DNA of 64,000 bases from an uncultured Polyangiaceae bacterium (GCA_964577325.1 CAZNZA010000009.1:10698-74697); one strand, 5' to 3'; shown: positions 15,007-22,855, counted from the first letter of the stretch. The notes: generated from the letters alone by a model not told the origin. Numbers and translations: made by a program.

Positions 15007-15915
15007 ATGTTCACATTCACCCTACACCGACTTCACAACGAGGAAACAGTGTCTGAAGCAACCGAACGGTATGGTCGCTCCCCGCTAGACCGCTACATCG
15101 CAAACGCCCATTGCGCGCCGGTCCTCTCCCAGCTCGATGAAACGGACTGCGCTCGGCGTTGGCAGACCCATGCGGATCAGGCCGCATTGGACGCCCTGAT
15201 GCGGGCCAACCTGCGACACGTGGTCTACATCGCTCGTCGTTTCCGTGGCTACGCCGTATCTCAAGACGAGTTGATCGCTGAGGGTACGCTTGGCCTGCTC
15301 AAGGCTGCCGACGGTTTTGATCCGGAGCGGGGACTTCGCTTCTCCACTTATGCCGGGTACTGGATACGCTCTTACATGACCCGCCTCGTGCTCAAATCTT
15401 GGAGCTTGATTGGCACGGGAAAGGGTGCCCTCAGCTCCCGTACGTTCTTCCGTCTGCGCCGAGAGCGGGCTCGTGCCGAAGCCTTGGTGGGCAGCGATCA
15501 AGCTCGTTCGGAAATTGCTCGCAACATGGGTTTGACTCCGGAGCGAGTAGCCGAGCTCGAACATCAGATCGACCAGCGAGACATATCACTTTCTCAGCCC
15601 TCGAATGACGGTAGCGTGGTCGATCTCGTTGATGTCGTCGAATCCACTCACGACGATCACACTGAGCTCGAGCAAAGGGACTTCGCGGAATGCTACCGGC
15701 CGCACCTGCAGCAAGCACTGGAAGCATTGGATGCGCGTGAGCGTTACGTCATTCAGAATCGATACATGAGTGACGACCAAGTACCCTTGGCCGCGATCGG
15801 GCGAGAGCTTGGCGTTTCCCGGGAGCGTGCACGGCAGCTCGAGGTCCGAGCCAAGAACAAGCTCCGGCGCTCGGTGATGCGCATGACTACCGCAGCGACA
15901 CCGCTTGCAAGCTAA
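15007..15915 (+). CDS. Sigma-70 family alternative sigma factor (RpoH-like/group 3)
   Basis: The ORF starts at 14899. ATG 15007 is preferred by length. Region 2: ANLRHVVYIARRFRGYAVSQDELIAEGTLGLLKAADGFDPERGLRFSTYAGYWIRSYM. Region 4 HTH: LAAIGRELGVSRERARQLEVRAKNKL. Confidence 0.8.
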   Translation: MFTFTLHRLHNEETVSEATERYGRSPLDRYIANAHCAPVLSQLDETDCARRWQTHADQAALDALMRANLRHVVYIARRFRGYAVSQDELIAEGTLGLLKAADGFDPERGLRFSTYAGYWIRSYMTRLVLKSWSLIGTGKGALSSRTFFRLRRERARAEALVGSDQARSEIARNMGLTPERVAELEHQIDQRDISLSQPSNDGSVVDLVDVVESTHDDHTELEQRDFAECYRPHLQQALEALDARERYVIQNRYMSDDQVPLAAIGRELGVSRERARQLEVRAKNKLRRSVMRMTTAATPLAS

Positions 15916-17003
15916 GGTGCTGGTGGACGCCGGGGAAGCGTTACCACGAGGCGCGTGCCCTGGCCCGAGGCGGACTCAGCACGGACATCTCCTCCGTGCG
16001 CCCGGGCAATTTGTCGGACGATGTATAGTCCAAGACCCAGGCCTTCACGTTGTAAACCAGCCCGCCGTGACACGAAGGGCTCGAACAAGCCGGGTAAGTC
16101 GCGTGGATCGATCTCGCCTTGGTTGATGACGTCTATCCGTACCTGATGCTCTTGAACACCATTCAGGCGCACGAGCACTGGTTCGCCGGCAACACCATGT
16201 TCGAGCGCGTTGCCCAGCAGGTTCGAGAAGACCTGCCCGACCCTGGATGCGTCCCACTCTCCGGTTAGATCCCCCTCGTGGGTGAGTTGCAGATGCGCGG
16301 TAGAGGAAGTAGCGCTGATCTCTTCGACCGCATTTTTCGCGATCTCTACTAAGTTGCAAGGTTGGCGATTGACCGGAATTCCGCCGCTCAGGCGCGCACG
16401 CGATAGGTCGAGCAAGTCGCCGATGATCGAGTTCATACGCCGCGAACTTCGCTCTATCTTGTCGGCCGCCTTGATGATCTGCGGATCGTCCGTGGTCATC
16501 TTCAGCAGAGTACTCGACATGAGAATGGAGTTCAGCGGGTTGCGTAGGTCGTGACTGACTACCGCCACGAGCTCCTCACTCAACCGCAGCATGTTGGCTA
16601 GCACTTCGCGCTGCCGCTGCATGTCGGCGAAGACCTTCACCTTGCTAATCAAGACCTGTGGATTCAGCGGCTTGAACAGGAAGTCCACGGCTCCCGCGTC
16701 ATACCCGCGAAACTCGCGCGTTTTCTCCGCAGCGCCCGCCGTCACGAAGATGATGGGGACTTTGGACGTGCGGCTCGCGCCCCTCATCAACTCCGCAAGC
16801 TCAAAGCCGTCCATTTCCGGCATTTGCACGTCGACCAGCGCTACGGCCACGTCTTGCTCGAGCAGCAGCTCCAGGGCTTCTGCTCCTGAACGGGCCGCGA
16901 TCAGCTCAACGTCGACATCGGCCAGTATCGTCTGCAACACGAGCAGGTTTTCCTGTCGATCATCGACCAATAGAACTTTGGGTGGACGCTCTGTGGGTAA
17001 CAT
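15912..17003 (-). CDS. Response-regulator/histidine-kinase fusion (REC-HisKA-HATPase_c)
   Basis: N-terminal REC (KVLLVDDRQENL...VALVDVQMPEMDGFEL...KP). H-box VVSHDLRNPLNS. N-box NLLGNALEH. G-boxes GLGLGLYIVRQIARAHGG. Confidence 0.85.
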   Translation of the reverse strand: MLPTERPPKVLLVDDRQENLLVLQTILADVDVELIAARSGAEALELLLEQDVAVALVDVQMPEMDGFELAELMRGASRTSKVPIIFVTAGAAEKTREFRGYDAGAVDFLFKPLNPQVLISKVKVFADMQRQREVLANMLRLSEELVAVVSHDLRNPLNSILMSSTLLKMTTDDPQIIKAADKIERSSRRMNSIIGDLLDLSRARLSGGIPVNRQPCNLVEIAKNAVEEISATSSTAHLQLTHEGDLTGEWDASRVGQVFSNLLGNALEHGVAGEPVLVRLNGVQEHQVRIDVINQGEIDPRDLPGLFEPFVSRRAGLQREGLGLGLYIVRQIARAHGGDVRAESASGQGTRLVVTLPRRPPAP

Positions 17004-17077
17004 AGGAAGCCTTCATCCTTTCCCAGGAGATCCGTGTCTCCTAGTAGAGCGCGATAAACGCCGCTGTCCTTCAGTCC

Positions 17078-21899: not shown

Positions 21900-22006
21900 T
21901 GATGGCGTTTTATACCGAGCCCTCGCCGGTGCCCAGCTTCATGTAGGTGAGGCAAGGGGCCACGCTCGACTGAAGCTCTGTCGACCGTTTGCGCGTCGGG
22001 CTCCCG

Positions 22007-22855
22007 CTACTCTGGCCAAACCACGCGTACCGCGGTAGCCAGCGGCACAAACTCGACGGTCCCACCTGCCGGTGCGTGGGTGGCGTCATTGGCTCCTTGC
22101 CCTGAACGCTCCCGCCCGTCCTCCGGACTGACAGACACGTTGGCCCCGCCTTCTTCCAACCTGCCGAGGGATGTGGCCAAGAGAAGCCGCGCGTAGCGCT
22201 GAGTATCTGGCAAGCTAGCAGCCGCAGGTTCGAACCATGGCTCTAGAACGAGGCGACGGTCGGCCGGCAGTTGCTCGTGGTCGAAACGCAGAGTCAGCAC
22301 CAATGAATCCGTGCCCTCGGCACTCAAAAACCAGCGCACGCGCCTGCCAGGTTCATTGCCCAATTCGCGGCAAGCCTCGCACAGCGAACGTAGCGGAACA
22401 TCGAGGCGAACTCGAGAGTGTCCGCGGGGAAGCTGTTGCTGCTCCGCGGTCTGCACCTCGGTCACCTCTAGCCCGTACTCCTGCGCCAACGCCGCAAGTT
22501 GAGCGCTGACCTCATGAGCCGAGGGCGATGGGCGCTCCCCGTAGGCAAACGCGACGGCTCCCTTGAGCTCGCTGTGAGTCTTGCGCAGGCGTTCGCGAAT
22601 CAAACCCAATGATTCGCGTCCCGAAGCGCTCAAGCCATCGTCGAGTTCGAGCAGACTCAGGCGACCAGAAACGACGTTGATAGCGTTGCCGACGCTATGC
22701 GCCGTGGAGCGGACGACGCGCTCGAACAGCATCCAAGCCTTTTCCAAATCATGGCTGGCGGACTGCGTGCCTTCGAACCCTTCTGTGTAACGGTCAGCGT
22801 CGCCGGTATCCATACTCGTACTCAGCTCTTCCTGTAGAAGTGACGATAGCCGCAT
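22007..22855 (-). CDS. Hypothetical protein, possibly a degenerate histidine-kinase/phosphotransfer-like protein
   Basis: 282-aa ORF co-directional with and 107 nt upstream of the hybrid kinase. STAHSVGNAINVVSGRLSLLE resembles an H-box/DHp helix. No recognisable N/G ATP-binding boxes downstream. Confidence 0.35.
   Translation of the reverse strand: MRLSSLLQEELSTSMDTGDADRYTEGFEGTQSASHDLEKAWMLFERVVRSTAHSVGNAINVVSGRLSLLELDDGLSASGRESLGLIRERLRKTHSELKGAVAFAYGERPSPSAHEVSAQLAALAQEYGLEVTEVQTAEQQQLPRGHSRVRLDVPLRSLCEACRELGNEPGRRVRWFLSAEGTDSLVLTLRFDHEQLPADRRLVLEPWFEPAAASLPDTQRYARLLLATSLGRLEEGGANVSVSPEDGRERSGQGANDATHAPAGGTVEFVPLATAVRVVWPE

Follow-up and report, generated by a model that had tools for sequence, protein, structure and literature searches.

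Why does a pair of chemotaxis-type adaptation enzymes, CheR (a methyltransferase) and CheB (a methylesterase), sit inside an operon of histidine kinases (HKs)? We examined this in a 64,000-nucleotide stretch of DNA from an uncultured Polyangiaceae bacterium (GCA_964577325.1 CAZNZA010000009.1:10698-74697), referred to below as the window. An earlier note, made from the sequence alone, had described here five co-directional minus-strand genes, two of them CheR and CheB, and had suggested that the pair methylates the flanking kinases. The locus is, we think, likely to be the Polyangia-type member of a widespread cassette, of the CfcA-CfcB-CfcC-CfcD and RsbK-RsbM kind, in which CheR and CheB act on the signaling helix (S-helix) of the upstream hybrid kinase, HK1. 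An open reading frame (ORF) check and Pfam searches confirmed the five genes, their domains, and both gene overlaps:

22855-22007, minus strand: gene of a 282-amino-acid (aa) protein (ORF check of the window).
21899-18486, minus strand: HK1, 1137 aa, GTG start, membrane hybrid sensor kinase of the CfcA/RsbK type (Pfam and translation).
18489-17662, minus strand: CheR, 276 aa counted from ATG, S-adenosylmethionine (SAM)-dependent protein-glutamate O-methyltransferase of the CfcB/RsbM type (Pfam).
17662-17078, minus strand: CheB, catalytic domain only (methylesterase/deamidase), 194 aa counted from ATG (Pfam).
17003-15912, minus strand: HK2, 363 aa, soluble receiver (REC)-HisKA-HATPase kinase of the CfcD type (Pfam).

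The last four genes form the core cassette, which runs from the hybrid kinase through CheR and a REC-less CheB to the REC-HisKA-HATPase kinase. The HK1 stop codon overlaps the CheR ATG as ATGA at 18489-18486, and the CheR stop codon overlaps the CheB ATG in the same way at 17662-17659. Consensus scans of positions 15600 to 23100 yielded no promoters (nothing exceeding the shuffled expectation) and no excess of terminators (10 terminator-like sites versus 6.2 ± 2.9 expected from shuffled sequence). The unity of the operon at this locus is claimed only through the overlaps and the short intergenic gaps. The best relatives of CheR carry a Polyangiaceae label.

We then looked for chemotaxis components. 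In total, 48 genes were called in the window by length and GC content at third codon positions (GC3), and 43 of them were joined into pseudo-proteins for a Pfam scan. Across all called window genes, Pfam detected no MCPsignal, CheW, Hpt, or CheA-type domain, and phmmer searches of 708 six-frame window segments with probes for the methyl-accepting chemotaxis protein (MCP) signaling domain and for CheW returned nothing at an E value of ≤10. The probes were the E. coli Tsr and CheW sequences. Pfam MCPsignal proteins in two other loci (L004 and L039) served to validate the MCP probe; the CheW probe had no positive control, and it is chiefly the Pfam scans that speak for the absence of CheW. With none of MCP, CheA, and CheW present, the CheR/CheB pair lies outside any che cluster, as had been proposed. 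The accompanying statement that the 64 kb holds no CheY-like protein does not hold in full, as a single-domain REC protein is encoded at 23979-24365.

To determine how widespread this arrangement is, we scanned one genome per GTDB species with an alignment of the CheR. This gave at least 600 stretches, of which 593 were confirmed, and the CheR was thus matched in at least 593 species-representative genomes; its relatives at an E value of <1e-20 make up at least ~8,000 clusters at 90% identity. Out of the at least 593 loci, 80 were fetched, and their domains were mapped by phmmer. They cover more than 10 phyla and include Burkholderiales, Pseudomonas, Caulobacterales, Sphingomonas, Planctomycetota, Acidobacteriota, Verrucomicrobiota, Bdellovibrionales, Myxococcota, Gemmatimonadota, Desulfobacterota, Cyanobacteria, Bacteroidota, and Bacillaceae. 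The same four genes stand amid unrelated neighbors in Hydrogenophaga and in a Polyangiaceae metagenome-assembled genome. Similar HK-CheR-CheB-HK neighborhoods, which the earlier note had mentioned for other genomes, are therefore real, and the arrangement is conserved well outside this one.

Within the fetched loci, a kinase with the order GAF, HK, REC ended at the CheR start in 63 of the 72 cases with enough upstream DNA (and in 2 more was split into two ORFs), and CheR lay immediately downstream of a hybrid kinase in 74 of 82 loci. CheB followed CheR in 72 of the 80 loci, and a REC domain was found in none of these 72 CheBs. The 4-nucleotide overlap of CheR and CheB was kept in 51 of 72 loci, in support of the proposed translational coupling of the pair, and that of HK1 and CheR in 25 of 74. 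In most fetched loci, an HK2-type REC-HK lay downstream of CheB. An MCP gene occurred within 8 kb in 2 of the 80 loci, in both at a distance from the cassette and in L004 on the opposite strand; CheW was found in none of the 80, again with a probe lacking a positive control.

Some loci depart from the common layout. Five (L005, L053, L066, L067, and L075) have a CheR of the same subfamily with no recognizable GAF/S-helix kinase upstream of it, and we treated them as rearranged variants; four of the five keep CheB and/or the downstream kinase, and L053 has a REC-PAS(x4)-GAF-HK protein downstream instead. In Alloalcanivorax/Alcanivorax (L055, positions 7968-11049, and L062, positions 7908-11030), the genes of CheR and CheB flank a separate 160-aa REC gene. 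In L055, a REC-PAS-PilZ protein replaces the second kinase, and the S-helix has two EEL...NEEL copies (see below). These two variants hint at a detached CheB receiver and an output linked to cyclic di-GMP.

The candidate for methylation is HK1, which has the extracytoplasmic sensor, GAF, S-helix, HisKA-HATPase, and C-terminal RECs of the cassette-type kinase. Pfam identified GAF_2 (E = 2e-8), HisKA (4e-19), HATPase_c (1e-29), and three Response_reg stretches (4e-57). The elements of HK1 on which the argument turns are as follows:

HK1, N-terminal part: predicted transmembrane helix TM1, about aa 17-37; periplasmic CHASE3-like domain; predicted TM2, about aa 174-195; GAF, aa 250-374; S-helix.
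HK1, C-terminal part: HisKA, aa 467-534 (His476); HATPase, aa 581-690; probable pseudo-REC; two canonical RECs.
20505..20747, minus strand: S-helix, candidate methyl-accepting segment, aa ~385-465, between GAF and the H-box.
20667..20696, minus strand: core motif EELRVTNEEL, aa 402-411 (pattern search).

The membrane segments were read off the sequence as two hydrophobic stretches around ~140 aa. The domain between them had been called CHASE3-like. Pfam did not detect CHASE3 in the HK1 N terminus even at an E value of 0.1; the HK1 N terminus is collinear with the N-terminal ~227 aa of a Polyangiaceae orthologue, the region in which Pfam does find CHASE3 (23% identity; E = 3e-10), and the label is therefore acceptable. 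Over its full length, HK1 is 39% identical to its orthologue in a Pseudomonas putida locus (L035), for which Pfam reports CHASE3-GAF-HisKA-HATPase-3xREC. The first REC of HK1 (window positions 19320-19649, minus strand) has Glu at the phospho-accepting Asp site (IVVEESL versus ISDWN in CheY) and is therefore probably a pseudo-receiver.

The S-helix is a coiled coil of ~75 residues with Leu at every seventh position (397, 404, 411 ... 460); Asn408 and Asn436 likewise lie in its core. Glu-Glu pairs occur at 402/403, 409/410, and 430/431. The pattern [EQ][EQ]L...N[EQ][EQ]L has a single match in the six-frame translation of the whole window, at 20667-20696. In an alignment of 66 orthologues, E402/E403 and E409/E410 were conserved at 85 to 95% (E403, 95%; E410, 95%) and E431 at 94%; Glu430 of the window is not conserved in the family. 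Core positions L404, L411, N436, and L439 were conserved at 100% and N408 at 97%. The conservation of the motif roughly equals that of the region around the phospho-accepting His (the H-box).

The motif is also specific to one kinase of the cassette. The strict form, EEL...NEEL, occurred in 61 of 65 upstream HK1-type kinases and in 0 of 49 downstream HK2-type kinases of the fetched loci; among other kinases in the flanks of these loci, it occurred in 3 of 39. The Glu pairs occupy the two positions preceding each core Leu and form an exposed stripe with heptad spacing. Chemoreceptor methylation sites share this geometry of heptad-spaced Glu pairs on an exposed stripe. The earlier note had taken both flanking kinases as possible substrates. 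Because the motif marks the upstream and not the downstream kinase, HK1 is plausibly the methyl acceptor, and this part of the proposal is retained for HK1, with its MCP-like Glu-Glu array, and dropped for the REC-HK downstream. EEL...NEEL also provides a simple sequence marker for the cassette, which names E403, E410, and E431 as the residues of interest here.

Next, we compared the two enzymes with their chemotaxis counterparts. Pfam assigned CheR_N and CheR to the methyltransferase (3.6e-37), which shares ~60% identity with the Burkholderiales cassette CheRs and 41 to 57% with those from other phyla. Against solved chemotaxis CheRs it reached E values of only 7e-24 to 1e-11; its SAM domain aligns to 5FTW and 1AF7, and the SAM-domain motifs are invariant within the subfamily. 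The methylesterase matched CheB_methylest alone (2.7e-47), and Pfam found no REC domain in it, in agreement with the earlier description and with the cassette CheBs of the fetched loci. It aligned to the catalytic domains of the Salmonella and Thermotoga enzymes (1CHD and 3SFT), and its Ser, His, and Asp motifs fall at the expected places: GGSAG, LHVAPG, and NEDGAAG match GASTG, QHMPPG, and GNDGAAG of 1CHD. The triad Ser164/His190/Asp286, in textbook CheB numbering, corresponds to S20/H45/D138 of the window protein, which is consistent with an intact catalytic triad. In NCBIfam, the CheR equivalog model gave 72.6 bits against a cutoff of 435 and the CheB model 119.7 bits against a cutoff of 342. 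Because the scores fall far under the chemotaxis equivalog cutoffs, yet the CheRs are 41 to 60% identical across phyla, the sequences point to a dedicated orthologous CheR subfamily that travels with the kinase.

The earlier note knew of no mechanistic description of such a neighborhood and held that CheR and CheB canonically act only on chemoreceptor glutamates. Published work does not support the first statement and shows the second to be too strong. RsbK of Bacillus cereus (CHASE3-HAMP-GAF-S-helix-HK-REC) is methylated on its S-helix by RsbM, a CheR-type enzyme from the same operon (PMC4574943, PMC9912610, PMC12848376), and the methylation was demonstrated in vitro with 14C-SAM (PMC4574943, citing Chen et al. 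2012). Loss of RsbM leads to constitutive sigma-B activity, and methylation holds RsbK off (PMC4574943; PMC9912610). The RsbK authors had already reported 127 RsbK-like kinases in 10 phyla (PMC4574943). In Salmonella, CheR methylates the response regulator PhoP (PMC8546571). Direct methylation of a kinase is therefore well supported for HK1 by the motif and its conservation; it is not a new idea.

The window cassette resembles RsbK-RsbM-RsbY in that a CheR-type methyltransferase shares an operon with a hybrid kinase built of an extracytoplasmic sensor, GAF, S-helix, HK, and REC. A Cytobacillus (Bacillaceae) locus of the same CheR subfamily (L077) has the RsbK/RsbM layout, a 4HB-HAMP-GAF-S-helix-HK-REC kinase accompanied by CheR only; in full-length, collinear matches, its kinase is 33% and its CheR 44% identical to those of the window, with the EEL heptad repeats shared. 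RsbK has a HAMP domain and one REC, whereas HK1 lacks HAMP and carries three RECs, of which the first is degenerate. In RsbK, the single REC acts as an inhibitor and binds to the S-helix in its methylated form. The B. cereus module has no paired CheB (PMC4574943) and no second REC-HK, whereas the window cassette has both. Its output consists of RsbY (REC-PP2C), RsbV/W, and sigma-B, whereas in the window PP2C and REC are separate genes and no STAS/RsbW-type protein was found.

The CheR/CheB pair of the P. putida cluster reportedly plays no part in chemotaxis (PMC4951495, citing Garcia-Fontana 2013). In strain KT2440, the cluster has been named cfcABCDE, and the diguanylate cyclase CfcR depends on CfcA, a hybrid kinase with CHASE3 and GAF (PMC4951495). 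The same paper places cfcB and cfcC in the cfcA operon as "one of the three CheB/CheR systems" and states that a role in chemotaxis had been reported as ruled out (PMC4951495). CfcA has a periplasmic CHASE domain between two transmembrane helices, a GAF domain, a kinase core, and three receivers (10.1101/2024.11.25.625174), an architecture that matches HK1. Salt is a stimulus of CfcA. The BmsA kinase of Pseudomonas alkylphenolica has the same neighbors (PMC8175716). Both clusters share with the window the order of CHASE3/GAF/HK/3xREC kinase, CheR, REC-less CheB, and REC-HK (PMC4951495; PMC8175716), and the four window proteins are collinear over their full lengths with those of P. putida locus L035 (HK1, 39%; CheR, 51%; CheB, 40%; HK2, 38% identity). 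Orthology was gauged through this locus and the Cytobacillus one, used in place of KT2440 CfcA and B. cereus RsbK themselves. Unlike cfcABCDE, the window has no cfcE-type REC directly downstream, and it has an extra upstream gene, that of the 282-aa protein, with the predicted fold of a dimerization and histidine phosphotransfer-catalytic and ATP-binding (DHp-CA) core. Unlike CfcA, HK1 has a periplasmic domain that Pfam does not recognize as CHASE3. Unlike the cfc system, the 64 kb hold no CfcR-like REC-GGDEF-EAL protein; the neighbors are a PP2C phosphatase, a lone REC, and Ser/Thr kinases.

Compared with chemoreceptor adaptation, the cassette uses the same two enzyme families, and its putative acceptor, situated between the sensor and the kinase-controlling region, is likewise a coiled-coil dimer whose exposed face bears Glu-Glu pairs at seven-residue intervals. 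Unlike in chemoreceptors, the acceptor helix would lie within the kinase itself, MCPsignal, CheW, and CheA are missing, and CheB has no REC for CheA to phosphorylate. The site context in the cassette (Q-Q-E-E-L / x-N-E-E-L-E-E-Q) differs from the MCP consensus, and both enzymes score below the equivalog cutoffs of the chemotaxis families. CheB and CheR joined to a histidine kinase without an MCP are also found in fusion proteins. One of 1322 aa (CheB_methylest, CheR_N, CheR, PAS_4, HisKA, HATPase_c, and REC) is encoded at 18247-20831 (minus strand) of L086, a related contig from Polyangia whose own cassette lies 8 kb away. Such fusions differ in that one polypeptide holds all the domains, the sensor is of the PAS type, and the CHASE3/GAF or S-helix cassette is missing. 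The L086 cassette itself has lost CheB.

Several observations weigh against action of CheR and CheB on the HK1 S-helix. Methylation of a kinase by an adjacent CheR is demonstrated only for B. cereus RsbK/RsbM, and for no Gram-negative cassette in the literature examined; the CfcA preprint is silent on methylation (10.1101/2024.11.25.625174). CheB is missing from 8 of the 80 loci and a recognizable HK1 from ~5, and the parts of the cassette are therefore separable. The Glu-Glu motif is unlike the classical MCP site consensus, in which small residues flank the pair, and the assignment of methylation sites is accordingly a guess. The window HK1 also departs from the family consensus at acidic positions (A396, A412, S413, S437, and S438). 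Finally, MCPs encoded outside the 64-kb window may be additional substrates of this CheR/CheB pair. On the other side stands the precedent of RsbM, which methylates the S-helix of the homologous RsbK and thereby supports methylation of HK1.

From the gene order, domains, CheB triad, and conservation of the cassette, together with the conservation and specificity of the motif, we infer that CheR and CheB act on HK1, and the same holds for the residues used, the direction of the effect, the flow from HK1 to HK2, and the output. HK1 would sense through its periplasmic CHASE3-like domain and cytoplasmic GAF domain and pass the signal through the long coiled-coil S-helix into the DHp/H-box. Co-translated CheR would methylate the solvent-exposed second Glu of the Glu-Glu pairs, with E403, E410, and E431 as candidates, and the REC-less CheB would strip the methyl groups and might deamidate neighboring Gln. 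The level of methylation would set the gain or the off-state of HK1 autokinase and phosphotransfer activity, much as RsbM keeps RsbK off. Phosphoryl groups would then pass from the HK1 receivers to the REC of HK2 and/or a terminal single-domain REC, and in this lineage the 282-aa protein may be a His-phosphotransfer step. HK2, in which Pfam finds REC, HisKA, and HATPase_c, has the receiver as its sole input domain, with a canonical phospho-accepting Asp and no Glu-Glu motif, and is presumed to be the second tier of the relay.

The principle is already published for B. cereus RsbK/RsbM, and the window adds no new concept, only a slightly more elaborate member of the cassette. Glutamate methylation is usually taught as confined to chemoreceptors; this cassette would place both the writer and the eraser on a sensor histidine kinase. 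A REC-less CheB is present in ~90% of cassettes, yet it is missing from the sole biochemically studied system, and the role of CheB, the purpose of the second REC-kinase, and whether the loop truly adapts are under-studied.

An extension of this model, which we regard as possible and put forward tentatively, is that the cassette forms a self-contained adaptation or memory loop within a two-component relay, followed by the second-tier REC-kinase and, in this lineage, acting via an undescribed ChpT-like DHp-CA pseudokinase that only a few metagenomic relatives share. CheR and a constitutively competent, REC-less CheB would then read the conformation of the S-helix, with feedback by the state of the substrate and not by CheB phosphorylation, and a transmembrane hybrid kinase would gain chemoreceptor-like adaptation. 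Methylation might instead be static or maturation-type and fix a default off-state, as proposed for RsbM, with CheB mainly a deamidase or a housekeeping eraser without feedback. Such a role is suggested by the lack of a paired CheB in B. cereus (PMC4574943) and in 8 of 80 cassettes, as well as by the REC-less state of the cassette CheBs, which leaves no obvious phosphorylation feedback. We consider it rather unlikely, since CheB is kept in 90% of cassettes and is usually translationally coupled to CheR, which argues for a balanced writer and eraser; judging from chemoreceptor models, even a REC-less CheB could feed back by preferring one signaling conformation of the helix.

It also seems improbable that the substrates are other relay parts (HK2, a receiver domain, or the 282-aa protein) and not the HK1 S-helix. 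CheR does methylate PhoP on Glu/Asp pairs (PMC8546571), and the cassette is rich in RECs, five being counted in the operon; against this, the methylated element of RsbK is the S-helix (PMC4574943). The S-helix of HK1 is moreover the only extremely conserved acidic array, the heptad motif occurs in 0 of 49 HK2s, and almost every cassette lacks the 282-aa protein. The pair could, lastly, be a conventional one that serves chemoreceptors encoded elsewhere, with its place in the kinase operon reflecting only co-regulation: its catalytic domains are ordinary by Pfam with the catalytic and SAM motifs present, che clusters exist elsewhere in Polyangia and most host genera (Pseudomonas, Sphingomonas, and others), and 2 fetched loci have an MCP within 8 kb, but four-gene synteny in over 10 phyla, with MCP, CheW, and CheA missing from the surroundings, 72 of 72 CheBs without the CheA-coupling REC, and scores far under the equivalog cutoffs make this very improbable. 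The P. putida pair, reportedly inactive in chemotaxis (PMC4951495), and RsbM, which acts on RsbK (PMC4574943), speak against it as well.

The 282-aa protein upstream of HK1 had been called HK-like. At the level of family models this was not borne out, with no Pfam match (even at E = 0.1) and no NCBIfam match, and a profile of its family against PDB sequences gave noise only (best E = 0.097). At the fold level the name stands. The AlphaFold model (predicted local distance difference test [pLDDT] score, 73; predicted template modeling [pTM] score, 0.68) is a hairpin of two long helices followed by an alpha/beta domain, and its top Foldseek matches are DHp-CA cores of histidine kinases (CckA, 5idj; template modeling [TM] scores, 0.56/0.63; E ~1e-6). 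ChpT (4fpp) is among the matches at rank 49, and the fold fits a phosphotransferase, a pseudokinase, and a RetS-like modulator alike. Only 5 homologues exist in a collection of 5.8 billion proteins; in close relatives, the gene lies directly upstream of HK1 every time (64% and 44% identity). In the shallow alignment of 6 sequences, His53 of the first long helix is invariant, and the C-terminal half has no invariant Asn and no DxGxG or GxGxG Gly-rich boxes. Tentatively, the model suggests a kinase-fold protein unable to bind ATP, whose role may be that of a ChpT/Spo0B-like phosphotransferase serving the hybrid kinase or of a RetS-like modulator. Upstream ORFs of the same length, 282 aa, in the atypical loci L005, L053, and L066 were considered as homologues of the 282-aa protein and rejected as coincidental, as phmmer found no similarity and Pfam found unrelated domains or none.

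Three further genes lie on the upstream side of the operon:

22911..23969, plus strand: PP2C phosphatase (Pfam PP2C/PP2C_2), divergent from the operon; possible output partner, membership uncertain.
23979..24365, minus strand: single-domain response regulator, 128 aa, 1.1 kb upstream (Pfam Response_reg, 1.5e-18); possible terminal acceptor, membership uncertain.
24434-26233, plus strand: Ser/Thr kinase gene upstream of the operon.

PP2C has the same position in the relatives L085 and L086, and L085, L084, Hydrogenophaga L001, and many Pseudomonas loci likewise have a lone REC close to their cassette. The trio of PP2C, single-domain REC, and Ser/Thr kinase is retained in the closest relative, L085; L086 has PP2C and CsbD. 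The PP2C and REC neighbors may represent an RsbY-like output split into separate genes. Their adjacency may equally be a matter of chance in a kinase-rich genome, because Ser/Thr kinases and PP2Cs abound throughout the window. A sigma-B-like partner-switching output, considered because of the PP2C neighbors and a sigma-70-family gene convergent with HK2, is retained as a side remark only; no STAS/RsbW-type protein turned up in the window.

Ser/Thr kinases and PP2C, FHA, PEGA, and TamB/Omp85 proteins are abundant in the window. A 15-bp unit repeated 8.5 times (96% match) at 4012-4139 (plus strand) encodes (D-S-D-T-A)n within an Omp85/POTRA outer-membrane protein (2863-5445), and a 110-bp unit repeated 1.9 times (96% match) at 27349-27559 is intergenic between the genes of a TPR/PEGA protein and a DJ-1/PfpI protein. 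A bacterial match to Pfam MATCAP (microtubule-associated tyrosine carboxypeptidase; E = 2e-28) at 57225-58313 (minus strand) adjoins an exonuclease III-like gene. Two tandem genes for PilT/PilU-like T2SSE ATPases at 35152-37596 (plus strand) are consistent with type IV pilus retraction motors of a gliding, myxobacterium-like organism.

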